64,000 bases of DNA from Carcharhinus amblyrhynchos (lineage: Eukaryota): assembly GCA_965287045.1 (NCBI GenBank), contig OZ336872.1, positions 83,824,001 to 83,888,000 on the forward strand, in the 5' to 3' direction. Made by a program: the position numbers and the translations under genes. The notes under the pieces were generated by a model. The model made no database searches. It was not told where the DNA came from and saw nothing but the letters and a program-made list of their open reading frames with translations. Below, one piece after another: positions 7,138-64,000 of this stretch; the first letter of the stretch is position 1, and each line of letters starts with the position of its first letter.

Positions 7138-7564
7138 TGATCTTTTAGGCCTCATTCTGTTGCTGTTCTACTTGCAATTCTTCCTCCTTCCAATTACAAT
7201 TCCAATTGACGTTACAACTGTACGCAAAGATCCCAGAATGGAACCCTGGCTCAAAAGACTCTCACTTTTACTTCTTTGTTTATAAAACACGGAGAAATAG
7301 CGTTGCAGGGCCACACAGGAAAAAGTGATAAAATATGTTTTTTTATATATGATTCTTCTTTGGCGTAACAAATACACGTAGATTTTAAGATTCACATCGA
7401 TTACAATGATCATCTTAAGCAACAATGGTCTCAGCATCACAAGTCTCTTTAAACACACATATGGGCTGTGGCCAAATGTGTACGTTCCATTCGGAATTCA
7501 AGTTAGTATCTGTGACTTTCTCCTCAGAATCCCCCAGATGATTGAGAGAGTTTTCAAGCTCTAA

Positions 7565-7807
7565 CAATCCCACTCAGGCCCTATATATCCCTGTAACCCA
7601 ATGTATTGACCCTGCTAATCCCCCTAAGGGACAATTTACCATAGCCAATCAACCTAAACTATGCATACTTGGAGTGTGGGAGGAAACTGGAGCACCCACA
7701 GAGGAAATCCACGCAAGACATGATGAGAATGTGCAAACTCCACCAAAGGCCAAAATTAAACCCATCTCTGGTGCTGTGAGGCAGCAGTGCGAACCACCGT
7801 GCCACCC
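7565..7807 (-). mobile_element. tRNA-derived V-SINE (HE1-like)
   Basis: Reverse complement begins GGGTGGCACGGTGGTTCGCACTGCTGCCTCACAGC and contains the GTGGAGTTTGCACATTCTC...GGTGCTCCAGTTTCCTCCCACA V-domain. Confidence 0.8.
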
Positions 7808-8427
7808 ACAAAGTCATGTAGTCAACAGAATTGAGAGATGTTCATTCCCTGATGCCCTGTCTTCAATTGCCTATAAATTCAGCTACACTAGGAACAAAAA
7901 CCTTTCTACCTTAAAAGAGCTTCCAGTTGCTAATCAACACCTACATACTTCTGCTGGCTCATTTACTCTTTACGCTGTAGTCCCCTCTAAGCAGTATAGA
8001 AACACAGTTGGAACTGAATCAACCCCCACACATGATACCTTTGTCCAGCATGAACCTAACTATAGGTTTTGCCCTTTCTTTCACAGAAACATTAAATTAA
8101 ACCCACTTAAACTTTATAAATAAGGTATAGTTTTATCAATACAAATCCCTCAAAATTATCTTTATTTTCCTAACATTCCCAACCACCATTTGAGAGCCGA
8201 TATCCACTTGCTTAATATACCTGTTGCATATTTCTATACGTCGCTTTTAAAAGGCTTGATGAGGTTAAGTCATCCCAAGTAACATGTAGGGAAAGTGAAC
8301 CACTGATATATTTGTACCTAATTGCTACATATTTTGCTGTGGTATAACAAGCGAGTACAAGGGGGTGGGGACATTTTTGGCTTCCAATTTTAAATGCATT
8401 GATAATGTCATTTGTGTCTCTGTCTAG

Positions 8428-19666: not shown

Positions 19667-21040
19667 GGTTGCTAGAATCCGTCATCAAAGAAGAAATAGC
19701 GAGGCACCTAGAAAAGAATGGTTTGATCGAGCAGACGCAGCACGGATTTGTTCAGGGGAAGTCATGTTTGACAAATTTATTGGATTTCTATGAGGATGTG
19801 ACTAGTGCGGTAGACAGAGGGGAACCAGTGGATGTGGTGTTTTTAGATTTCCAAAAGGCGTTTGATAAGGTGCCTCACAAAAGGTTGCTACAGAAGGTTA
19901 GGGTGCACAGAGTTGGGGGTATGGTGTTAGCGTGGACAGAGGATTGGCTGTCTAATAGGAAGCAGAGAGTTGGTATCAATGGGTGCTTTTCTGGTTGGCG
20001 GTTGGTGACTAGTGGAGTGCCGCAGGGATCGGTGCTGGGGCCTCAACTATTTACCATTTATATAGATGATCTGGAGGAGCGGGCTGAGTGTAGGGTGATG
20101 AAATTTGCTGATGACACGAAGATGAGTGGAAAAGCAAATTGCGTGGAGGGTATGGAAAGTCTGCAGAGAGATCTGGATAGGCTGAGCGAGTGGGTGAGGA
20201 CCTGGCAGATGGAGTATAATGTTAGCAAATGTGAGGTTATCCACTTTGGCAGAAATAATAGTAGGAGGGATTATTATTTAAAAGGCGAAAAGCTGAAGCA
20301 TGCTACGGTGCAGAGGGACCTTGTGCACGAATTGCAAAAACTCAGTCTACAGGTGCAGCAGGTGATCAAGAAGGTGAATGGAATGTTGGCCTTTATAGTG
20401 AGGGGGATAGAATATAAAAGCAGGGAGGTCTTGCTGCAACTGGACAGGGTACTGGTGAGGCTGCAGCTCGAGTAGTGTGTGCAGTTTTGGTCGTTGCACT
20501 TGCGGAAGGATATATTGGCCTTGGAGGGAGTGCAGAGGAGGTTCATTAGGCTGATACTGGAGATGAGGGGGTTGGCCTATGAAGAGAGACTGAATAGACT
20601 GGGTCTGTACTCGTTGGAGTTTAGAAGAATGAGGGGGGATCTTATAGAGACGAATAAGATAATGAAGGGGATGGATAGGGTAGAGGTAGAGAGATTCTTC
20701 CTGCTTAGAAAGGCTAGCAGGACTAGAGGACACAGCCTCAAGATAAGTGGGGTGGGGGGGGGGGTGTGCAGTTTAGATCAGAGTTAAAGAGGAACCTCTT
20801 CACTCAAAGGGTGGTGAATCTCAGGAATTCTCTTGCCCGTTGAAGTGTTGGAAGCTACCTCGTTGAATATTTTTAAGTCACGGGTAGATAGGTTTCTGAT
20901 AGACAGGGGAATTAAGGGTTATGGGGAGAAAGCAGGAAAGTGGAACTGATCCACTTCAGATCGGCCATGATCTTATTGAATGGTGGGGCAGGCTCGAAGG
21001 GCCAGATGGCCTACTCCTGCTCCTATTTCTTATGTTCTTA
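19667..21040 (+). mobile_element. Young 5'-truncated CR1 LINE
   Basis: 268-aa ORF with [27 protein letters not shown] and KFADD; TTCTTATG tail repeats. Confidence 0.96.
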
Positions 21041-25129: not shown

Positions 25130-25705
25130 CTGTATGGGGCACTGGTGAGGCAGCAACTGGAGTACTGTGTGCCGTTTTGGTCCCCATATTTGCGGAAGGA
25201 TATATTAGCCTTGGAGTGAGTACAAAGAAGGTTCACCGGGCTGATACTGGAGATGAGGGGGTTAGCTGTAGACTGGGTCTGTACTCGTTAGAGTTTGGAA
25301 GGCTGAGGGGGGATCTTATAGAGACTTACAAGATACTGAAGGGGCTAGATAGGGTAGAGGTAGAGAGATTCTTCCCGCTTAGAAAGGATAGCGGAACTAG
25401 AGGGCTCAGCCTCAAAATATGGCCGGGGTCGGGGGGGCAGTTTAGAACGGAGTTGAGGAGTAACTTCTTCGCTGAAAGGGTGGTGAATCTCTAGAATTCT
25501 CTGCCCCTTGAAGTGGTGGAGGCTACCTCATTGAATATATTTAAGTCACGGGTGGATAGATTTCTGATAGACAAGGGAATTAAGGGTTATGGGGAGAAAG
25601 TGGGAAAGTGGAACTGATTCACTTCAGATCAGCCATGATCTTATTGAATGGCGGGACAGGCTCAAAGGACTAGATGGCCTACTCCTGCTCTTATTTCTTA
25701 TGTTC
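25130..25705 (+). mobile_element. CR1 3' fragment (same family as 19667 and 27785)
   Basis: ALVRQQLEYCVPFWSPYLRKDI and LYSLEFGRLRGDLIETYKI; same tail. Confidence 0.93.
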
Positions 25706-25899
25706 GTGTGTTCAGGGGAAGTTGAGCTTCTAAACCCTTGCACTGGAATTTCAAGAGGAATTCCCTGACAAATCATTGGGGTAACACCCCACATCCATGA
25801 TGCTGGGGAGCCAGGCAATTGTGGGCCAGAAAAATTAAAATGAGTTGTAAAACAAAGCTTATGATAAGAATTCATAATTCATCAAAGAACCAAGCTGAT

Positions 25900-27360: not shown

Positions 27361-27784
27361 AAGGGTCAGCAACCAACCAGAGGGCACAGATTAATAGTAA
27401 TTGATGATAAACTAGAGACAGTAAGAGACATGATGATCTGGGGTGGTGGAAGCAGATCAATAACTTTGTGGGGGTGAGGGTAAGAGCATAAAAATGGCAT
27501 GAATTGGATAGCTGTCCTTTCGTGATGCATCTTTGTGTGAACTCATTTAATACATTTATCATTCTGGTCAATCTGCTGTGCCCCTTCCATAGCCAATATA
27601 TTCTTCTTAAGTTGCGATGCCCAGAACTGCAAGCAGTATCCAGATGTGATCTAAACAAAGCTCTGCACAGTTGCAATATAACTTCAAGCTCTGTTCAGAT
27701 GAAGAACAATGTTAAGTTACTGGAAAGACTTTCACCTTATTTACTCTACCAAAACCAAAAGATTTTGAACATCTCTACCAAGTC

Positions 27785-28975
27785 TTGATTTTCAGAAGGC
27801 GTTTGACAAGGTACCTCACAAGAGGTTATTGCAGAAGGTAAGGGGGCATGGAGTTGGGGGTAGGGTGTTAGCGTGGATAGAGGATTGGTTGTCAAATAGG
27901 AGGCAGAGAGTGGGGGTTAGTGGGTGCTATTCGGATTGGCGGTTGGTGACTAGTGGAGTGCCCCAGGGGTCGGTGCTGGGGCCTCAGCTATCTACCATTT
28001 ATATAGATGATCTGGAGGAGGGAACCGAGTGTATGGTGTCGAAATTTGCTGATGACACCAAGATTGGTGGAACGGCAAATTGCGCGGAGGGTGTGGAGAG
28101 TCTGCAGAAGGATCTAGATAGGCTGGGCGAATGGGCCAGGAACTGGCAAATGGAATTTAATGTTGGCAAGTGCGAGGTGGTCCACTTTGGTAGGAATAAT
28201 GGTAGGAAGGACTATTACTTACGTGGCAAAAAACTGCAGCAGGCGACGGTGCAGAGGGACCTCGGGGTCCTTGTGCATGAGTCGCAAAAACGCAGCCTGC
28301 GGGCGCAGCAGGTGGTCAGGAAGGCGAATGGGATGCTGGCCTTCATAGCGAGGGGGATTGAATATAAAAGTAGGGAGGTCTTGCTGCAGCTGTATAGGGC
28401 ATTGGTGAGGCTGCAGCTGGAGTACTGTGTGCGGTTTTGGTCGCTGTACTTACGCAAGGATATTTTGGCCTTGGAAGGAGTGCAGAGGAGGTTTACTAGG
28501 CTGATACCAGAGTTGAGGGGGTTGAGCTATGAGGAGAGGCTGAATAAACTAGGCTTGTACTCGTTAGAGTTTAGAAGAATGAGGGGAGATCTCATTGAGA
28601 CATATAAGATGATGAATGGGTTGGATAGGATAGAGGTGGAGAGACTCTTCCCGCTCAGAAAGGACAGTAGGACTAGGGGGGCACAGCCTCAAGATAAAGG
28701 GGGGACGGTTTAGAACAGAGTTGAGGAGGAACTTCTTCACTCAAAGGGTGGTAAATCTCTGGAATTCTCTGCCCATTGAGGTGGTGGAGGCTGCCTCGCT
28801 AAATATTTTTAAGACACGGGTTGATGGGTTTTTGGTAAGCGAGGGGATTAAGGGTTATGGGGAGAGGGCGGGAATGTGGAACTGAGCCACGACAGATCAG
28901 CCATGATCTTATTGAATGGCGGGGCAGGCTCGAAGGGCTAGATGGTCTACTCCTGCTCCTATTTCTTATGTTCTT
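27785..28975 (+). mobile_element. Young CR1 LINE with an uninterrupted 294-aa RT ORF and AAGTC target-site duplication
   Basis: ORF 27829-28713; AAGTC at 27780-27784 and 28976-28980. Confidence 0.96.
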
Positions 28976-29857
28976 AAGTCCCCCTATTCTTTTTTCCAAA
29001 GTTAATAATCCCAACACCTCTAGCTATTCCGCACAACTTAAATCCTTCATAAGAATAAGAAAAGGAGTAGGCCATTTGGCCCATTGAGCGTGCTGTGCCA
29101 CTTTTCTGCCTTTTCATGATAATCCTTGCAGACTAAGATCTGTCTCACCCAGCCTTGAATAGGTCATTCCCGGTATCATTTTAGTATTTCCTCTTCATAC
29201 CCAGGCCTCAAAGTTCTTCCTAAATAATGGTGCCTAGAATTTGACGCAATATTCCAGCTAAGCCTAATCAGTTTTGTTTTTAATAATTGTTTGTGACTTT
29301 CTTGCTTTTTGTATTGAAGTCTTTCTCACTGCCTTCTCAACTTGTCTTATCACATTCAAAGACTTGTTTATGTATGTCCATTCCTAGGTCCTCTTTTCCT
29401 GCCTTGGCTTCAGTATTGTACCATTTGGCTTAAGTTATCATTTGTACTTACTTCTTGTACTTGTCCACTATTGATTTCAGCACTTGTATCTCTAAATACC
29501 TCAACCCATCCATAGTTGATGCCGCCTTGCCGTTTAGAAAATAAAAATTTCTAAATCATTATTTCTCAGACTTGCGGGTTAATTGGAAGAATATAAAAAT
29601 GTATCTTTCACACTGAGTAGTCCTTTTAGAATTTTGGCTGAACATAGGAGATTAATTTAGGACTTTTAATCAGGCTCTGATGGTCAATGATTTCCAGGCT
29701 GCTGCTCTTATGGAATTATTCCAGTGATTCCTGTGATGAGCCATCCTGTTCTTAGCACATGGCCTTATCTTGGGCTTCAGTTTGTAGTTTGAGGCTCTTT
29801 CTACAGCACCAGCCATTTAATATTTATATAGCACGTTTAAACAAAACTCTGTTCTAG

Positions 29858-44127: not shown

Positions 44128-45950
44128 AAGAACATAGAAAAACTACAGCACAAATAGGCCCTTTGGCCCACAAGTTGCACCAAACATATCTCTACCTACT
44201 AGGCTTACCTATAACCCTCAATCCTATTAAGTCCCATTTACTCATCCAGAAGTCTCTTAAAAGACCCTATCAAATTGGCCTCCACCACCACCGACAGCAG
44301 CTAATTCCACTCACCCATCACCCTCAGTGAAAAACTTACCCCTGACATCTCCTCTGTACCTACTCCCCAGCACCTTACACCTGTGTACTCTTGTAGCAAC
44401 CATTTCAGCCCTGGGAAAAAGCCTCTGAGAATCCACCCGATCTATACCTGTCAACATCTTATACACCTCTAACAGGTCGTCTCTCCAAGGAGAAAAGACC
44501 GAGCTCCCTCAACCTTTCTTCATAAGGCATGCCACCCAATCCAGGCAACATCCTTGTAAATCTCTGCACCCTTTCAATAGCTTCCACATCCCTCCTCTCA
44601 TGAGGTGACCAGAACTACGCACACTACTCCAAGTGGAGTCTGACTAGGGTCTTATAAAGCTGCAGCATTCTCTCCTGACTCCTAAACTCAATCCCTCGAT
44701 TGATGAAGGCCAGTACACCATATGCCTTCTTAACCACATCCTCTACCTGCGAGGCCGATTTAAGAGTCCAATGGACCCGGACCCCAAGGTCCTTCTGATC
44801 CTCTACACTGCTAAGAGTCTTAACCTTGATATTATACTCCTTCATCCCATTTGATCTGCCAAAATAGACCACTACACATTTATCCGGGTTGAAGTCCATC
44901 TGCCACTTCTCCGCCCAGTCTTGCATCCTATGTCTCGCTGCAACTTCTGACATCCCTCCAAACTATCCACAACACCACCAACCTTCGTGTCGTCAGCAAA
45001 CTTACCAACCCATCCCTCCACATCCTCATCCAGGTCATTTATGAAAATTACAAACAGCAAGAGTCCTAGAACAGATCCCTGGGGCACTCCACTGGTGACT
45101 GACCTCCATGCAGAAAAAGATCCATGTACAACCACTCTCTGCGGGCAAGCCAATTCTAGATCCACAAGGCAACAGCCCCTTGGATCCCATGCCCTCTCAC
45201 TTTCTCCAGAAGTCTTGCATGGGGGACCTTATCAAACGCTTGCTGAAGTCCATATAAACCACATCTACCACTCTTCGTCAATGTATTTAGTCAGATTTTC
45301 AAAGAACTCAACCAGGCTTGTAAGGCATGATCTGCCTTTGACAAAGCCATGCTGACTACTTTTGAGCATAATAAACTTCTCTAAATGTTCATAAATCCTG
45401 TCCCTCAGGATCTTCTCCATCAGCTTACCAACCACTGAGGTTAGACTCACTGGTCGGTAATTTCCTGGACTATCCCTATTCCCTTTCTCGAATATAGGAA
45501 TCACATCTGCAATCCTCCGGAACCTCTCCCGTCTCCATCTCGCAAAGATCATCGCCAGAGGCTCTGCAATCTGTTCCTTCACCTCCCACAGTAACCTGGG
45601 GTACATCCCATCCGGTCCTAGCGACACATCTATCTTGATGCTATTCAAAATTTCCAACACCTCCTCTTTCTGAATGTCCACATACTCAATCTTTTCAGTC
45701 CGCCATAAGCCTGCAGCACAACCACCCAAATCTTTTTCCACCATGAATACCGAGGTAAAGTACTCATTAAGCACCTCTGCTATTTCTACCAGTTCTGTAC
45801 AAACTTTTCCACCTTCACATTTTATAGGCCCTATTCCTTCACATCTCATCCTTTTACTCTTCACATATTTGTAGAATGCTTTAGGGTTCTCCTTAATCGT
45901 ACCTGCCAAGGCCTTCTCATGCCCCCTTCTGGATCTCCTAATTTCCTTAA
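44128..45950 (-). mobile_element. CR1 LINE (second subfamily), 5'-truncated and frameshifted
   Basis: ORFs 45265-45909, 44872-45165 and 44624-44953 with [22 protein letters not shown] and FADD. Confidence 0.95.
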
Positions 45951-48119: not shown

Positions 48120-49740
48120 ATTACAAGAAATAGGAGCAGGAGTAGGCCATTCGGCCCTTGATCTTATTGTGGCCTGAAAGCCACTTACCTGCGCACGCGC
48201 GCCCCCTCCCCTTACCAGCTTTAACTTCCTTCATGATAAAAAAATCTAATTCAGCCTGAACGTATTGAATGACCCAGACACATACAATTTTGCAGGGTCT
48301 GTTGGTGTCAGCATTTCAGACTCAGAACTCAATGGATTAAGCCATGTCCACAGCCAGAAAATCACAATTAGAGGGATCTTGAAGCTGATCCCAGGATTGC
48401 AAAATCTGAGTCTTCACTCCTCATTGCTGCCTCAGAGCCTGCATCCCCAACTGCTTGTCCCTCAGCCCCATTGAGGTTCGTATCCATAGCTTGGGAAGTC
48501 CTGCCCCACAGCGAAGACAGACAAAATATTGGTTTGCGGTTTCCTTGTTTCCCGTATTAATTCCCCAGTTTCACCCTCTTAAGAGGCCAATGCTCACTTT
48601 AGCTACTTTTCTTTTTTAAATACTTGAAGAAACTCTTACTGTCTGTTTTCATATTTCTAGCTGGCATTCTCTTATACTTCAATTTCCCCCTCATTATCTT
48701 TTAGTCATTCTTCACTGGTTTCTGAAGTCTGTCAGATCTTCTGACCTACCACTACTCTTCACAGTATTGTATGTTTTATCTTTCAATTTGAAATTATCCA
48801 TAACTTCCTTAGTTAGCCACAGTTGTTAAATCCTTTGCATAGAATCTTCATTTAATTGAGCACATCTTTGCTGTTCTGAAATGTCTGCCATTGTTCCTCT
48901 ACTCTCTTTTAACCTATTTTCTTAGTTCACTTTATCCAAATCTGTCTTTGTACCCTTGTAATTGCCTTTATTTAAGTTTAAGACACTATTCTTAGACCCA
49001 TATTTCTCACTCTTAAATCGAATGTGAAATTCAATTTTACGATCATTGCTACCTTAAGGCTCTTTCACTGTGAGGTCTTTAATTAATCTGTTTCATTGCA
49101 CATTATGTGGAGATGCCGGTGTTGGACTGGGGTAAACACAGTAAGAAATCCCACAATACCAGGTTATAGTCCAACAGGTTTATTTGGTAGCAAAAGCCAC
49201 TAGTTTTCGGGCCTTTGTCCCTTTGTCAGGTAAGTGGAGAGGTCAGGTGAACTTTTGCTACCAAATAAACCTGTTGGACTTTAACCTGATGTTGTGAGAC
49301 TTCTTACTGTCATTGCACATTTCCAGATCTAAAACAGCCTGCTTTCTGGTTGACACTAGATGTACTGTTTCAAGAAGTTGTCCTGTATATACTCTATGAA
49401 CTAATTGTTCAAGCTACCTTTGCTAATGTGATTTGTCCAATCTGTAAGAAGATTAAAATTACCCACGAATATTTCAGTATCTTTCTTTCATACTCCCCTT
49501 TACCCCATCCTACAGCATGGCTACTGTTAGAGTCCCAGTTTTGGCCACTTCGCACCCACATCTCTGAAATGGCTATTAGGTCATACATAGTTATTTCCAT
49601 TTGTGCTACCAATATATCCATTTTGTTATGAATGCTGTGAGTATTCAGTTACAGAGCTTTTAATTCTGTATTTTTTTAAACCATTATTGCAAACCCAGGC
49701 CTTATCTGCTGGTGCACTCAAGTTTGCACACACTGATTTG
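48120..49740 (-). mobile_element. Old CR1 pieces including the APE N-terminus
   Basis: LVAQMEITMYDLIAISEMWV motif; CR1 tail at about 48125. Confidence 0.7.
49105..49309. mobile_element. 205-bp mini Penelope element with inverted terminal halves and a 12-bp TSD
   Basis: TSD TCATTGCACATT at 49093-49104 and 49310-49321; about 59-bp internal inverted repeat; homologous to the ends of the 53349-54461 element. Confidence 0.88.
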
Positions 49741-50058: not shown

Positions 50059-50460
50059 TTAAGGAAAGACAGATGACAATAAGTTTGAGATATAATCACA
50101 GCCTGGTGAGATTAACAAGAAATTATTTATAAATCATAAATATAAGTACCTGATGAAATATTAAATCCAAGTGATAGACAATCTGCTCACATTGTTTAGG
50201 CATTAACAAGAAAAAAAAGTCAGATTTCTACGAATATTTCCCAATTTTTCAGTCAGCGATTATTAAAAACTAAGTTTGAAAGTTTTAAAAATTTGCTAGT
50301 TCACGCAATGTAATTAACTGGTGTCTCTCACATAAGAATGTAAAATAAGTAGTCAATTGGTGTTGAAAATTAGGAAAAGGCTGATTAAGTGAGAAAATGC
50401 AGCAGCATCTTACTGGTAACTAACAGTTACCAGTAACTGGTAACTAACAGTTGCCAGTAA

Positions 50461-50786
50461 GGTGGCATGGTAGCACAGTGGTTAGCACTGCTGCTTCACA
50501 GCTCCAGGGAGCTGGGTTCGATTCCCGACATGGTTCACTGTCTGTGTGGAGTTTGCACATTCTCCTTGTGTCTGCATGGGTTTCCTCTGGGTACTCTGGT
50601 TTCCTCCCTCAGTCCAAAGATGTGCGTGATAGGTTGATTGGCCATGCTAAAATTGTCCTTAGTATCCTGAGATGTATAGATTAGTGGGTAAATATGTAGG
50701 GATATGGGGCAGGGCCTGGGTGGGATTGCGGTCGGTGATGGGTCGAATGGCCTCTTTCTGTACTATAGGGATTCTAAGCCATTCTA
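50461..50786 (+). mobile_element. Full-length HE1-like V-SINE
   Basis: A box GGTAGCACAGTGG, B box GGTTCGATTCC, V-domain, and CR1-derived tail GATGGGTCGAATGGCCT...GGGATTCTA. Confidence 0.9.
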
Positions 50787-53348
50787 ACAGTATAATCCAC
50801 AGTGGGTTCAGTTTACATTAATGGTGGAAACTTTTCCAAGCTGGAGAGTCAGAAATAAAATGTATTTGATAACGACCAACAAGCCAAGTTATTTTTGTTC
50901 AGGAATGTCATCGTCTAAGGCAGGAGGAACACCTCAGCTGACAATACTCCAAGATAAAAATGGCTTGAATTTCCTTGACTGTTGAGCTTTTGTACTTTTA
51001 CCTTGTATTTTTCACCTACTCAGCATCAAAGACTGTTCCTGCCATATGGATTGGCCCAGATTGCCTTCATACCCCTAGAAGAGATTAACAAGCACACAAG
51101 CAAATCATAGCAAAAACATCTACGTTAATGTACAAAATGCAGGTATTCCAACTCAGAGCATAAAAATCAACAGTTATGCTAGCTATACTACTGAACGTTG
51201 AAACAAGGTCCTCACTGGTATTTGCTGCCTGTCATCAACAGAACTTGGTCCCCTCCCCCTCCCCTGTTTGAAGCTTCACTCAGGCTATTAATTCAAGCAT
51301 GTATTTCTGATGATTGTATCATGCTAAAAAAAAACAAGGTGACAAAGATAAAGTGCACTGAGTTTCCTGTAAACTTGATTCAAGAAACTGCTCAAATTTG
51401 ACAGATGACCAGAAATATGTACAACCGTCACATAAAGGGACAGATCACGAACCAGCTCCAGTTGCTGCAAATTGTCACCTAGCTGTGGAATCCCATCTCA
51501 ATTCATACTTATAATGCCATGTAACAATATTGGTGATCTTAAATATGAGGGATATTTCTGGATAGAAGAGGATATTAACATTTAAAAACACTTACATTGC
51601 CTACGTACAGATCACCAGTTCTGCATTGTTATGTGTCAGCTGAATTGGGTAATTTATTCAAATGGAATCTGATTTTAACCCCATATGTTCTGAACTAGAA
51701 GGAAACAAATAATTTAAGGACTTCCAATTGCTGAGCAACTCCAAAGACATGCCAACTGATGTTTACATTAGTGCCTACGTGCTTCCCTTAATTCACATCA
51801 ATGCATGTACTAGCAGACTGTACATAATGTATCTAAAAAGTTTTTATTTAAATTACCTGCGTTTGCAGAAATCTGACACACCTTAAAGTCAATTCTTTTT
51901 CCAATTTTCAGTACCCCCATTCAATCAGTTCTCCACTTTGAATTAATAAGCTTGTCAATTAAAAAATCCCTTACCCTCCCGAATACCTGTCAACTCTTTT
52001 TTCAAACTGTTGTGTCTGACTCACTAATTGGCTCACTGGTGAACTGCACTGCCACTAATATCCCTACAAGATATTTCTTGCTGACATAATTTGCCATTTC
52101 TTGCTGCTGTCCTCTGCAGGCCATTACTCAGCCATTCAAGTATTTCTCACTGCTGCGTGTACAATTGATGTGCACACAATTGAACCACAAGTCACATTCC
52201 TGCAACCAATTAGACAATCTGAATATACTGCAGAAACGTAGCAGCCACCGTTTCTGAGCTGGCCGCTCCTGTCACTCCATGAATAGCTACATTAAATTGC
52301 CTATTTAAGTAAAACTTCTAGAAATGTTTCAGGTCAAAATCTTCTCCAGCACTTGTTTGGCTCATTTCCGGTGGCGTGCAATCCTTCCAAGTTCTCTAAA
52401 TGACTTTAAGCTTAATGCTTAATTCTCTTTTTCTCCATTAACATTTCAACAAATAGAAAATAAAACAGGAAACTTGATATATTATCTTAATTTAACTTGG
52501 TTGGAGTACACGTAGAGAGAGTCCCTGAAGGCAAGTTTGATTTTAATTGGTCTGAGGTTGAATCTCAGCACTGGTATTCCTTTCAAAATCACGTTCAGAG
52601 AGTTTTCTAAGGCAATGTTGAGAGGAACTGTAACACAGAAATCAATTATTACTGTTGAACAATGTCTGATAATACCTATGAAACTACACGGGATGGATTT
52701 TATGTGGATTCCCCAGATCCCAGTGCCTCAAGTCAGTTGTCATTGCCCTGACTCAGAAGTCACCTGTCCTCATAAGTCAGCAATGTTATGCTGGCAGCAC
52801 CCTTATTTGAGTTAAGGTGAGTCTTTTGTTCTCATCTGGTGGGAAGTCCTGCCCTAGAGAGCTGCTGGCTCATCTGATTTGGCTGATAGGTCTGCAGTCC
52901 CAGTAATGCTTAGATTTTGTACTGGTCACTTCTGGAACTACAAGCATTCCTACAAGGAAGAGGAGCCACGGAGGCAGGCTTCGGAGCTTAATCCAGTATT
53001 TCTGATGGGCCTGGCTGGAGAGCCCCAGCAAGTGGGTTGGGAGCCCAGGTTATTTTTGGGGAGGAGATGAGGAGTATTGAAGGGATAGGATCTAATTTTG
53101 CAAGAGGTACCCTCCCCTTTTTCTTGACAGTAGCCCATGCAGTAGCAAAAACTTATATCCTAAAACATAAATAGTGGCAAAAGCAGAATGATGTCATTAC
53201 TTGGCGATTAATGGTGTCAACAGGCCAAAGGGTGGACAGACAACCTGGCACCTTTCCTGCCTGCCTTAAAATGGGAGACAGATTGGGGGTGGGTGAGAAT
53301 GCCACCCATTTTATTTTACAAGTCCCTTCCTGGCTTTGAATATACCAG

Positions 53349-54461
53349 TAAAAAGTCTCACAACACCAGGTTAGAGTCCAACAGGTTTATTTGGTAGCAA
53401 AAGCCATTAGCTTTTGGAGCGCTGCTTCTTTGTCAGATAAGTAGCAGTTCTGTTCACAAACAGGGCACATAAAGACACAAACTCAATTTACAAAATAATG
53501 GTTGGAATATGAGTCTTTACAGTAATCAAGTTTTAAAGGTACAGACAATGTGAGTGCAGAGAGCATTAAGCACAGGTTAAAGGGATGTGTATTGTCTCTA
53601 GACAGGACAGTTAGTGAGATTTTGCAAGCCCAGGCAAGTCATGGAGGTTACAGATAGTGTGACATGAACCCAAGATCCCAGTTGAGGCCGTCCTCATGTG
53701 TGCGGAACTTGGCTATCAGTCCCTGCTCAGCGACTCTGCGCTGTCGTGTGTCATGAAGGCCACTTGGGAGAAAGCTTACCCGAAGATCAGAGGCCGAATG
53801 CCCGAGACCGCTGAAGTGTTCCCCAACAGGAAGAGAACACTCTTGCCTGGTGACTGTCGAGCAGTGTTCATTCATCTGTTGTCGTAGCGTCTGCATGGTC
53901 TCCCCAGTGTACCATGCCTCAGGACATCCTTTCCTGCAGAGTATCAGGTAGACAACGTTGGCCAAGTTGCAAGTGTAACGTTGGCCGATTTGCAAGAGCT
54001 ACTGTGTACCTGGTGGATGGTGTTCTCACCATCACAGCGCAGAGTCGCTGAATAGAGACTGATAGCCAAGTTCCGCACACGAGGACAGCATCAACTAGGA
54101 TTTTGGGTTCATGTCATACTAACCCCCACGACTGGCCTGGGCTTGCAAAATCTCACTAACTGTCCTGTCTGGAGACAATACACATCTCTTCAACTGTGCT
54201 TAATGCTCTCTCTCCACTCACATTGTCTGTACCTTTAAAACTTGATTACCTGTAAAGACTTGCATTCCAACCATTATTTTGTAAATTGAGTTTGTGGTTT
54301 TATATGCCCTGCTTGTGAACGGAACTCCCACTTACTTGATGAAAAAGCAGTGCTCTGAAAGCTAGTGGTTTTTGCTACCAAATAAACCTGTTTTTCTTTA
54401 ACCTGGTGTTGTGAGACTTCTTACTATGTTTACCCCCAGTCCAACGGCAGCATCTCCACAT
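53349..54461 (-). mobile_element. Penelope-like element: GIY-YIG endonuclease C-terminus with an inverted pseudo-LTR and about 15-bp TSD
   Basis: ORF 53648-53995 (YTCNLANVVYLILC...WYTGET...VGEHFS...AEQGLIAKFRTHEDGLN); about 53349-53745 is inverted at about 54035-54425; TSD TTTGAATA(T)TACCAG. Confidence 0.93.
54328..54368 (+). ncRNA. Minimal type I hammerhead ribozyme motif (degenerate)
   Basis: CCAC-TTAC-TTGATGA-[helix II]-GAAA-GCTA-GTGG; sister copies at 53404-53444(-) and 49197-49235(-). Confidence 0.7.
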
Positions 54462-54819
54462 TTTGAATATTACCAGCTAGGGGTCAGTAAAGCCCATCCC
54501 TACATCATGCCATTCCAAGACCCTTAGAACCTACAGCTTTACTGTCCAACTGCTGCCATTTTATTCAGCTGCTTTCAATTTATTAATCTGTTTCCTTGCT
54601 GTGAAGTACTAAGCCAGGGAGCAGAACAGGAAGGAATTATTAAAATGTTATAAAATAATATATCAACATTAACAACTAGTTGATATGAACATTTTTATAA
54701 CCCTGTGATATTTCTACACACTAGCAGGTATAGATAATGGATAGATATATATTCATGGAAAATGAAAGTACAGTGAAGAATCAAAGCATCTGATAATAGC
54801 TCTGCAATTATACCAAATC

Positions 54820-56050
54820 CAGTCATGAATGACCAATTAAACTAACTGTAGGGAGAGGACGCTCAAAAACCTTTGCATCCTCAATGACGGGGAACCCAGC
54901 ATGCCAGTGCAACAAAGGCTGAAGCATTCGCAACCATCTTCAACCAGAGGTGACAAATGAATGATTCACTTTAGCTTTGTCCTGAAGCCCCCACCATCTT
55001 ATGTGCCAGTCTTAAGTAAATTTGATTCACTTCACGTGGAACCAAGAAATGGCTGAAGGCACTAGTTACAGCAAAAGTAATGAGTCCTGACAACATGCTG
55101 CTGTAGTCCTAATGACTTATGCTCCAGAACCAGTGGACCCTTGGCCAAGCTATTCCAGTACAATTGCATCATCAGTATCTAGTCCACAATGGGGAAAATT
55201 GCTCAAACATGTCCTGTCCACAAAAAAAAAGCAATTCGGCCAATTATTATGCAATCTGTCTACTCTGATTAATCAGCAAAGTGATGGAAAATGTCATCCA
55301 CAGTGCTACCCAGCAGCACTTACTCAACAATAACCAGCTCACCAATGCAGTTTGGGTTCCACCATGACCATTCTGCCCCATACCTTTTTACAGCCTTGAT
55401 CCAAACATGGATGAAAAACTTAACTCCAGAGATGAAACTGCCCTTGACACCAAGGCAACAGTTGACTGAATGTGGCATTCAGGTTCATGCCCAAGTAAAT
55501 TTGAAGTCAATAGGAAACTCTGCACTTGTTGGAAGCCAACTATTTTAGTTCCAGTACTTCATTGCAAGAGTGTCCTGGGTATGGATGAGGGTTGCAGTAG
55601 TAGCTAAGCAGAGGCTCAGTCAAGCAATGTTAAGGGAGTGAAAGTAGGGGGTCTTGATGACAGAATGGATATATGATCAGAAACTGATGTTGGTGTCAGG
55701 TTCTGAATGGTCTGTTCAGCCTCAGGCAGTTGCCAGGATGAAGAAAAGCAGATAGCTGGAGAGTAGAATTTGTGGCGATCAGACAAAGGCTTCATATTTT
55801 CCAGTGTTTCGAGGTTGTAAATTGATGCTCATTCTGAATTGGAGGTCAAAATATGTGACAAATTAATGAGGGGTTGAGAAAAGTGGTGGTGAGGTAGAGT
55901 TGAGAGTGTCATCAAAGTAGATGTGGAACCTAACATTGTAATTATGGTTGAAGTTGTTGAGGGGCAACGTGTGGTTGGGAAGTAGGAAGGGAACCACAGA
56001 CAGATCTTGGGGGCCAAAAGACACTGGAAACAGAAGGTATTGACTCACTT
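54820..56050. mobile_element. Old LINE fragments (CR1/L2-clade on +, L2-like on -)
   Basis: QFGFHHDHSAPYLFTALIQTW on +; FHIYFDDT RT motif remnant on -. Confidence 0.65.
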
Positions 56051-62146: not shown

Positions 62147-62785
62147 CTATAAAATGAAGCAAAATAACATATTGCTATAAAGAAATAATGTTATAGTTCG
62201 TCTGCATTCTGTGTTTGAATGGTCCAATTCTGAATTCTGGGAGTGGAAGATCAACATGACACTGTGGAAACAAATTTATGTATGGAATGATTGAGTTTTT
62301 TTATTGAAATAGAATATTCTAAAAAGATAATTTCGAAGGACATGTATAGAGACGTTGTGTAAATTAGCATGGTTAAATTTCTCCCAAGGTTGATGGACCG
62401 TTCGATAAGTGTCCCTTAATACTTCAACCTGAGTGATGCCCACTCTTCACCTGAGCTAACAGAGTTTTAATAGAGGATATCCAACTATGGAAGAGCAGAA
62501 AGGTGGGGCAGGGCGAGAAAAATAAGACTTCAATTTGATCATGTCCTTAGAAATACAAGGATTATAAATTTGTTATGTTTTGAGATTGCCTATTTAACGT
62601 TAAAATGGAGTAGTTAAAGTGGTCAGGTAATCTGCTCCAAATCTGGGTTGACAACAAGCCTGCAGGGCTTGACTGTATAAGACAGTGAGGCCCACACTGA
62701 TATATTAGGATGATGATGAAGATGTTCACACCTGTAAACATGGCCAGAACAGCTATGTAGGGGCAGTGGAGGAGGGAGCAGGTAA

Positions 62786-63230
62786 AGGGATGGGGGGGGA
62801 GGGGGACAAAAAAGGGATGGGGGACAAAAAAGGGATGGGGGACAAAAAAGGGATGGGGGACAAAAAAGGGATGGGGGACAAAAAAGGGATGGGGGGGAAA
62901 AAAGGGATGGGGGGGAAAAAAGGGATGGGGGGGAAAAAAGGGATGGGGGGGAAAAAAGGGATGGGGGGGGAGGAAAAGGGATGGGGGGGGAGGAAAAGGG
63001 ATGGGGGGGGAGGAAAAGGGATGGGGGGGGAGGAAAAGGGATGGGGGGGGAGGAAAAGGGATGGGGGGGGAGGAAAAGGGATGGGGGGGAGGAAAAGGGA
63101 TGGGGGGGAGGAAAAGGGATGGGGGGGGAGGAAAAGGGATGGGGGGGGAGGAAAAGGGATGGGGGGGGAGGAAAAGGGATGGGGGGGGAAGGGAGGGAGG
63201 GGGGGAAGGGAGGGAGGGGGGGGAAGGGAG
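62786..63230. repeat. G-rich minisatellite with 18-20 bp units in a STAG1 intron
   Basis: GGGATGGGGGACAAAAAA, GGGATGGGGGGGAAAAAA and GGGATGGGGGGGGAGGAAAA arrays. Confidence 0.95.
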
Positions 63231-64000
63231 CGGGTAGAAGGAGGTTGGAGAGCCAGGAAGGGCAGGTTGGGATGGAGGACTGGTGAGATGGGTATGGATT
63301 GGGTGGACTGGTGGGAGTCATGGTGGACTGGCGGGAGTCATGGTGGACTGGCATCACAGAGGACAGGGGGGACAGATAGGCAGCTCAGAGAGAGAGCCTA
63401 ATTTTGGCTAGAATGAGAAAATCTCCAGGGTAAACCCCATTGTGAAAGTCCATTCAAGGATTAGTAGTTATCCAGTTGGAAAAGTGAAAAGGAAGCAAGC
63501 CATTGGGAACTGGGAATTGTTTTGGAGAATGAAATCTCCATTGTAGGGACAGAATAATGTATAACCAAGGATAGCGGGTTATGGTTGGTTAAAAGTTAAA
63601 TGGCAGATCTTTTCACTACTTTATTTGCCTACAAAAATATTGGTTAGTCATTAAGTAAAAACAAAAAAAAAATTGGATGAACACTTGAAATATCATAACA
63701 TTCAAGCATATAGGACAAGTGCAAGAAAATGGGATTACGCAACACCTTATTTAGCACCTCTGAAACCTCAGATTAAGCAGCATTCATAGGTAGGTTTCTT
63801 TTGTCAATGTGCTGACAACCCCTCAAAATAGTATTAAATTTGTTAGACATAACTGCAATCCACATTTCTTGGTTTAAAAATACTGCTTGAAATAACTTTT
63901 AAAAAATATGATTCATAACAATGTCACACTACAGTTCAGAAGTGCAAATACAAAGCCAAAAATCAGAAAATTTGTTTACAAAATATACACAAATAGCATT

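Follow-up and report, generated by a model that had tools for sequence, protein, structure and literature searches.

A decayed head-to-head insertion of a probable Neptune-type Penelope-like element in Carcharhinus amblyrhynchos, with a mutated minimal hammerhead motif in each arm and likely priming from both sides of the target cut

Metazoan Penelope-like elements are described as carrying minimal hammerhead ribozymes (min-HHRs) in their pseudo-LTRs (Cervera and De la Pena 2014, PMC4209133); among fishes these are reported in Xena, Poseidon and Neptune elements, and the same study notes opposite-strand pairs lying 100–700 bp apart. Within these elements, a CX2-5CxxC linker is described for the Neptune and Nematis clades and as absent from Penelope/Poseidon, and a bias toward microsatellite targets is hypothesised for Neptune without strictly defining it (PMC8557442). 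In PAc, the Poseidon element of Anolis carolinensis, both target strands are nicked and extended, two start sites bound the tail, and a dimer of the protein is predicted (Frangieh et al. 2024, PMC11167929). The available text of that study does not link the two start sites to inverted insertions, and our search of the main texts of the open literature found no paper tying the one to the other or describing two-ended priming for these elements. Related to the hammerheads of Penelope pseudo-LTRs are those of vertebrate non-LTR retrozymes, one of which is chondrichthyan (bioRxiv 10.64898/2026.07.22.740005, in the text available). The element class, the inverted layout, the one-sided tail, the target duplication and the minimal hammerhead are all already published (PMC4209133, PMC3846280, PMC8557442); a shark-specific description of a family such as the one treated here was not found in the open literature searched (the supplementary tables of PMC4209133 may list cartilaginous fish).

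In the 64,000-nucleotide stretch of Carcharhinus amblyrhynchos DNA that we analyzed (the window), one locus is almost certainly a single dead, 5′-truncated and decayed insertion of an abundant Neptune-type Penelope-like retrotransposon. Its arms, at 53,347–53,744 and 54,034–54,425, are inverted with respect to one another and share 87.0% identity over 401 nt (E = 1e-136). Alignment to family copies places the left arm at 53,347–54,030 on the minus strand, 5′-truncated, without a tail and with its 3′ end facing outward. The right arm, likewise delimited by alignment (54,034–54,425, plus strand), comprises the gene's last codons and the 3′ UTR/pseudo-LTR and is followed by a 36-nt tail (54,426–54,461, plus strand), with which it spans 54,034–54,461. 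The head-to-head junction consists of three untemplated or ambiguous bases (54,031–54,033), as judged from both 5′ ends aligned to three long family copies. A 14-bp target-site duplication flanks the whole insertion: its left copy (53,335–53,348, plus strand) is made up of a 12-bp core and two bases common to the element end, and its right copy (54,462–54,476, plus strand) has one later-added T at 54,470. This T is absent from contigs of two other organisms, X19 and X20, so the target repeat was perfect at insertion; the X19 contig alone bridges the right junction by at least 31 nt, the X20 contig having just 22 bases on the element side. The one target duplication and the bridging X19 contig together indicate that the insertion is single and was in place before the lineage of at least one other organism separated. 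Outside CpGs, the left arm diverges from the subfamily majority by 5.2% (17/328) and the right arm by 5.2% (17/324), the subfamily mean being 5.0% (46 arms). An AATAAA lies downstream of the hammerhead motif in each arm, at 53,386–53,391 on the minus strand and at 54,381–54,386 on the plus strand, and is kept in old and young subfamilies; the distance from predicted cut to AATAAA is 16 nt. An earlier note on this DNA had read here head-to-head pseudo-LTRs, an inverted duplication of about 400 bp, a target-site duplication, the end of a GIY-YIG frame and a motif just upstream of AATAAA, and the alignments uphold all of these readings.

The GIY-YIG remnant is an open frame on the minus strand (53,648–53,998) that aligns with the last 115 residues of an 893-aa family frame encoding a reverse transcriptase (RT) and, at the C terminus, a GIY-YIG endonuclease; of this gene, the window insertion holds the endonuclease end only. 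The remnant is 81–86% identical to 149 other genomic matches and is visibly damaged: YIG reads YTG, a substitution displaces the first CCHH cysteine, and the frame is broken upstream by a left-arm duplication of about 20–23 nt near 53,954–53,996. A Pfam search with the window fragment alone gave no match. The full protein is represented by family copy L051, a natural 893-aa single frame from ATG with an RVT_1 match (E = 3.8e-9), DKG at position 298, YIDD at 534, a C-x4-C-x2-C linker at 755 and VYLI...YIG at 793. Its endonuclease domain has C-x3-C between the motifs (VYLI-C-x3-C-YIG) and histidines downstream (CCHH); searched against PDB sequences, this protein found no match at E up to 1. The family accordingly shows the features of EN+ Penelope-like elements, namely an RT with a C-terminal GIY-YIG, CCHH, DKG, pseudo-LTRs, a tail and a target duplication. 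It resembles the Neptune clade as described in PMC8557442 in having the RT followed by a C-terminal GIY-YIG with CCHH, DKG, the CX2-5CxxC linker and a hammerhead near the 3′ end, and because L051 carries the linker by which that paper sets Neptune apart from Penelope/Poseidon, the family appears to be Neptune-type. As to the microsatellite bias hypothesised for that clade (PMC8557442), 50 family target duplications look mixed-sequence by eye (39% GC), with no such bias seen. A reading as Poseidon was rejected once the cysteine linker had been found in L051. The term "Penelope element" in the earlier note therefore stands in the sense of a Penelope-like element and needs changing as to clade, which by its linker appears to be Neptune-type rather than Penelope/Poseidon. 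Nematis was set aside for this family by what we take to be its host range alone.

The family is large, with at least 5,139 DNA candidates for its 3′ end, at least 53,690 candidates for the protein fragment, and 40,702 relatives at E up to 0.001. Its full layout can be seen in one copy, L114 (G000:C1:1568500-1574230), which reads in order as an inverted tailed copy (2.6 kb), a short repeat (173 nt plus tail), tail, ATG, gene and a tail-less end, with a unit of 3,014 nt and a 12-bp duplication. From this order (repeat, tail, ATG, gene) it follows that the tail is a leader that ends at the start codon. L114 also contains three identical intact hammerhead motifs, two of them on the same strand 3 kb apart, an arrangement permitting a dimer. 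In having a head-to-head 5′-truncated copy, a tail of 30–40 bp at one end, a short duplication and partial tandems, the family is like Pen2/Pen2a of Adineta vaga (PMC3846280; PMC8557442). It differs from them in that its duplication is mostly 12 bp rather than 8–10 bp, the inverted layout is dominant and the single tail is nearly a rule (PMC3846280). It is like PAc in its two internal start sites bounding the tail, a probably uncut RNA template and a hammerhead in the repeat; PAc belongs to another clade, however, and its gene begins inside the hammerhead with the tail within the gene (PMC11167929), whereas this family has its ATG some 100 nt downstream of the cut and its tail forms the leader. 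Unlike the non-LTR retrozymes, described as head-to-tail tandem units without a gene (bioRxiv 10.64898/2026.07.22.740005), the locus consists of two inverted arms and retains part of a gene. Two parts, the tail and the sequence running from AATAAA to the tail-less end, are conserved between subfamilies as strongly as the catalytic core, and both are likely to be protein-binding and start signals. Two copies, L064 (3403–7175) and L066 (2480–5673), have extra internal inversions between their arms, which suggests repeated template switches. At G000:C1:5337800-5527900 a small inverted pair and a neighboring motif recur four times at a spacing of 50–75 kb, likely a segmental tandem duplication.

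For the hammerhead motif, the consensus that the earlier note had drawn from three copies equals the majority sequence in 51 arms of the family, a set selected by likeness to the window's right arm. The exact intact-core pattern has 40,004 matches in the genome and its reversed control none, compared with about 4,000 in coelacanth and about 9,000 in Xenopus as counted with a different descriptor (PMC4209133), and the core is intact in 140 of 222 distinct sampled arms. Of these 140, 138 have A as the extra base following A9, and position 17 is U in 89, A in 42, C in 5 and G in 4. A palindromic AGCU stands in place of helix III in 44–50 of the 51 arms, depending on the position. The family motif is like the min-HHRs of PMC4209133 in its type I order, CUGANGA core, one additional base preceding G10.1, G10.1-C11.1 pair, palindromic 15.2/16.2 and short helix I, and also in its many variable consensus families; its helix II of 3–5 bp, with G10.1-C11.1, is unlike that of the Schistosoma min-HHR (7–8 bp). 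Across 19 recurrent helix II variants (each seen at least twice), 3.74 of the first four positions pair, versus 3.29 ± 0.09 with halves swapped (0/10,000). Across 18 intact copies picked by hand, pairing holds in 98.6% of cells and both partners change in three pairs of helix II, with slid controls at 20–58%; these counts come from alignment A2, excluding L133 (a wrong row) and the three damaged window copies. A pair-level shuffle of the covariation in the 18 copies was not significant (93/500), and the counts are uncorrected for relatedness. The catalytic positions are all kept while helix II is rewritten across the 19 variants, and position 7 is free to vary but G8 is not (TG 30, CG 10, CA 3, with a query bias toward TG). 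Given these patterns of sequence conservation, we consider it very probable that the family motif is a hammerhead maintained by selection, and the proposal that the family encodes a minimal type I hammerhead is borne out by the intact-core count against its control and by the covarying helix II. In active source elements, the motif likely supports slow, dimer- or protein-assisted self-cleavage in tandem transcripts.

The register that the earlier note gave for helix I had to be given up. Helix I had been read as CCAC/GTGG; it must adjoin C3, and its register is therefore UYAC/GUGG. In the 18 copies, the UYAC/GUGR register that abuts C3 pairs in 100% of cells, whereas CCAC/GUGG pairs in 81.9%, its outer pair failing in 10 of 18, and the helix varies on one side only (U-G/U-A, C-G/U-G). 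CCAC/GUGG is instead a competing fold. In the older subfamily, to which the window copy belongs, this off-register fold is lowest (−12.1 versus −7.7 kcal/mol), leaving the cleavage-competent fold 4.4 kcal/mol above it, and in young copies the in-register helix I belongs to the best fold. A scan with hammerhead models had also been suggested; those of Rfam, which do not fit the minimal form, matched nothing around the window insertion (E up to 10) or in three loci where intact copies lie (E up to 5).

Both hammerheads of the window insertion have decayed. A covariance model built from 18 other copies strongly matches the window at three places, with 48.3, 45.8 and 37.8 bits (the next best reaching 11.5), and young loci at eight, with 60–71 bits and mostly 64–71. 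The left motif (53,404–53,440, minus strand, 37.8 bits) carries G8A, G12A and G10.2A, and its first helix I pair has gone from C-G to U-A. The right motif (54,332–54,368, plus strand, 48.3 bits) carries C3U, G10.1A, G10.2A and C11.1U and has the AGCU palindrome; its helix I is formed by 54,332–54,335 with 54,365–54,368, its core lies at 54,336–54,342, helix II at 54,344–54,356, and the predicted cut falls after 54,364. Neither arm thus retains an intact core and helix II, the right failing by C3U, the left by G8A and G12A, and helix II being broken in both. The earlier note had called the copies crippled, and the core lesions and low scores agree; its C3-to-U change is found in the right arm and its CG-to-CA changes at both core CpGs in the left (G8A, G12A), so its list of lesions is correct as far as it goes and lacks the broken helix II of both arms and the changed helix I pair of the left. 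Its suggestion of methylation-like CpG decay fits as well: at the C11.1-G12 site, arms of the old subfamily read CG in 24, TG in 12 and CA in 8, a loss resembling that of CpGs outside the motif. U3, present in 8 of 51 arms, was considered as a sub-lineage marker and rejected as query bias, the C3U core pattern having 881 scattered matches versus 40,004 for the intact core. Because CpG loss proceeds as elsewhere in the element and U3 is sporadic, the window lesions represent decay, and both hammerheads are predicted to be inactive. The two motifs lie on opposite strands, and a read-through transcript would contain one sense motif within a 400-bp hairpin; with the sense motif paired to its own complement, no dimer could form in cis from one transcript. 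Wherever transcription runs through inverted pairs of this kind, they supply much long hairpin RNA. The window also holds a separate mini-insertion of the same family and layout, recognized by alignments at 49,105–49,309 (about 205 bp) and having its own target duplication, with a tailed minus-strand arm that bears a decayed motif (G8A, G15.2A) at 49,195–49,242 and a short tail-less plus-strand arm. Its junction contains a short extra minus-strand piece of the motif.

The layout of the window insertion is the norm for its family. Among the first 100 young-subfamily matches, all 27 close pairs (within 6 kb) are head-to-head and none is in direct orientation. Fetched loci gave 83 adjacent head-to-head pairs, 62 with a target duplication of at least 10 bp and 21 in which none was detected. 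Every one of the 62 has exactly one tail; 50 of them come from sets not selected for the tail, and two locus pairs look like segmental duplicates. The remaining 21 comprise 17 one-tailed pairs, two inner repeats of tandems whose outer ends are one-tailed, one pair whose tail carries a deletion, and one (L008) with two tails. In the short-arm sets, 42 of 45 pairs are one-tailed. The exceptions to the rule are L008, with two tails and no duplication found, and L157 and L177, tail-less on both sides. Fifteen apparent single arms have a credible nearby duplication; inspected by eye, 10 hide a partner of the other type and five are truly single. Partner arms of 10–27 nt, invisible to ordinary repeat annotation, occur in L101, L070, L045 and L009, and apparent singles are often two-ended. 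The target duplication is 12 bp in 24 of 50 cases and longer in 25 of 50. Microhomology between element and target averages 1.7 and 1.9 nt at the two ends versus 0.45 and 0.49 nt when shuffled, figures that run too high, since any longer duplication by definition extends into the element (about 1.2–1.3 nt by hand count in 12-bp cases). Arms diverge by 1.0% within an insertion and by 3.2% between insertions, and in 2 of 40 insertions, L062 and L075, arms of different sub-lineages lie under one duplication. In each of these two (L062, 3021/4648; L075, 1488/1837), the arms differ in their helix II variant and in linked positions, as though two source elements had been copied; the case of L122 (1491/1636) is less clear. 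Of 46 pairs, 14 have the tailed arm as the longer one and 11 as the shorter, while 21 have arms of equal length; the junction shows overlaps of 1–9 nt in 19 of the 46. Long pairs whose arms start within 40 nt of each other number 6 of 29, versus 0.75 expected.

To account for this layout, we propose that the element's protein, likely as a dimer, would make a target cut staggered by 12 nt, with 3′ overhangs, and that one overhang would prime at the end of the tail beside the ATG and the other 36 nt upstream. Both cDNAs would halt early and then be joined end to end, the template usually being one RNA or source lineage and sometimes two, and uncut or religated at the hammerhead. The one-tail rule and the mixed-lineage arms favor such two-ended priming, and on balance we lean toward it, with one start site per end and mostly one RNA or source. 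That every insertion of the family began from both ends of a 12-nt staggered cut, each end priming at a different one of the two fixed start sites, by a dimer able to hold two different RNAs, has a slightly better than even chance of being correct. For the window insertion, the whole reading, a dead inverted Neptune-type insertion with a mutated hammerhead per arm that was likely primed from both cut sides, is a likely one. In PAc the start site did not differ between strands in vitro, so the account in PMC11167929 leaves a strict one-of-each pairing unexplained. The main rival, which we hold to be a weaker though serious possibility, is fold-back self-priming of one cDNA (or an antisense template) that would yield the mirror image, with endonuclease resolution producing the one-sided tail, as proposed in PMC3846280 and PMC8557442. 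The near-identity of arms within an insertion and the excess of co-starting long arms also fit fold-back copying, which explains the co-starts as well as two-ended priming does, and the short junction overlaps point the same way. Mixed-lineage arms under one target duplication speak against it, however, as do the microhomology with the target at both outer ends and the arm lengths, by which in many pairs a tail-less first strand could not have served as template. Ends at two fixed sites, matching in kind the two published start sites (PMC11167929), are a further point against fold-back. It is most improbable that the window pair arose as two independent insertions or by a later rearrangement: the family is dense, and nested and adjacent copies do occur, but both arms are framed by one target duplication, are of equal age and follow the family's usual layout. 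If such priming holds for every insertion, a single mechanism would explain why Penelope-like elements have inverted repeats, a tail on one side only and duplications of fixed length, and tens of thousands of genomic copies would form a test set. The near-rule of one tail, the 12-bp duplication and the mixed-lineage arms are countable predictions that separate two-ended priming from fold-back, and the family is in this respect informative on the origin of inverted repeats and of the one-sided tail.

The family is informative as well on the hammerhead's role in Penelope-like elements. If cut RNA were copied, arms would begin at the predicted cut, and among 3,357 young arms that reach it, 13 do so, versus 31 starting five bases upstream and 22 five bases downstream, a rough comparison given that the three start-site patterns differ in their fixed parts. 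Inspection left 12 true starts at the cut, 28 upstream and at least 16 downstream, with four further +5 cases misclassified as continuing arms. Both arms co-start in 5 of 12 cases at the cut, not clearly above the controls (6/28 and 5/16), and once the pattern's capture rate (about 0.42) is allowed for, starts at the cut amount to about 1% of arms, which does not exceed background. We therefore rejected cut RNA as the template; templates would be uncut or religated, in agreement with PMC11167929, and the roughly 99% of cut-reaching arms that were copied across the cut point either to religated, circular templates or to a function of the hammerhead other than in forming the template. These start counts also bear on a different reading of the motif, namely that its fold is kept without cleavage in the animal, as a protein-binding or 3′-processing signal or as a passenger. 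For this reading one can also cite the anole core mutants, which left in vitro insertion unaffected, together with the lack of RNA ends at the cut (PMC11167929, in the text available), the weak cleavage of minimal motifs (PMC4209133) and the Naiads, which thrive without a hammerhead (PMC8557442). We consider it unlikely in view of the catalytic positions kept while helix II is rewritten, the fixed G8 beside a free position 7 (with the query bias given above), and the anole motif, which cleaves with protein and shows C3-G8 rescue (PMC11167929). Less likely by far is that the host has retained the window hairpin or one of its hammerheads for a function. The presence of the junction in at least one other organism (X19) is compatible with retention, as are the first helix pairs kept by double changes (U-A in helix I on the left, A-U in helix II on the right), yet the divergence of both arms equals the subfamily mean, the cores of both are damaged, and their covariance scores fall well below the 64–71 bits of most young copies.

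The locus itself is minor, one decayed copy and an ordinary member among tens of thousands. Among window frames of at least 130 aa no host exon was identified, these frames being LINE-like or low-complexity by eye. LINE-like reverse transcriptase fragments, also recognized by eye, lie at 19,670–21,040, 25,130–25,710, 27,780–28,980, 44,130–45,940 and 54,850–55,560, and we take them to be CR1/L2-like. Short high-copy repeats are present at 50,440–50,790 and 7,560–7,810, the former presumably resembling the HE1 SINE of cartilaginous fish. At 62,565–63,400, a G-rich low-complexity tandem repeat gives rise to long spurious frames on both strands.
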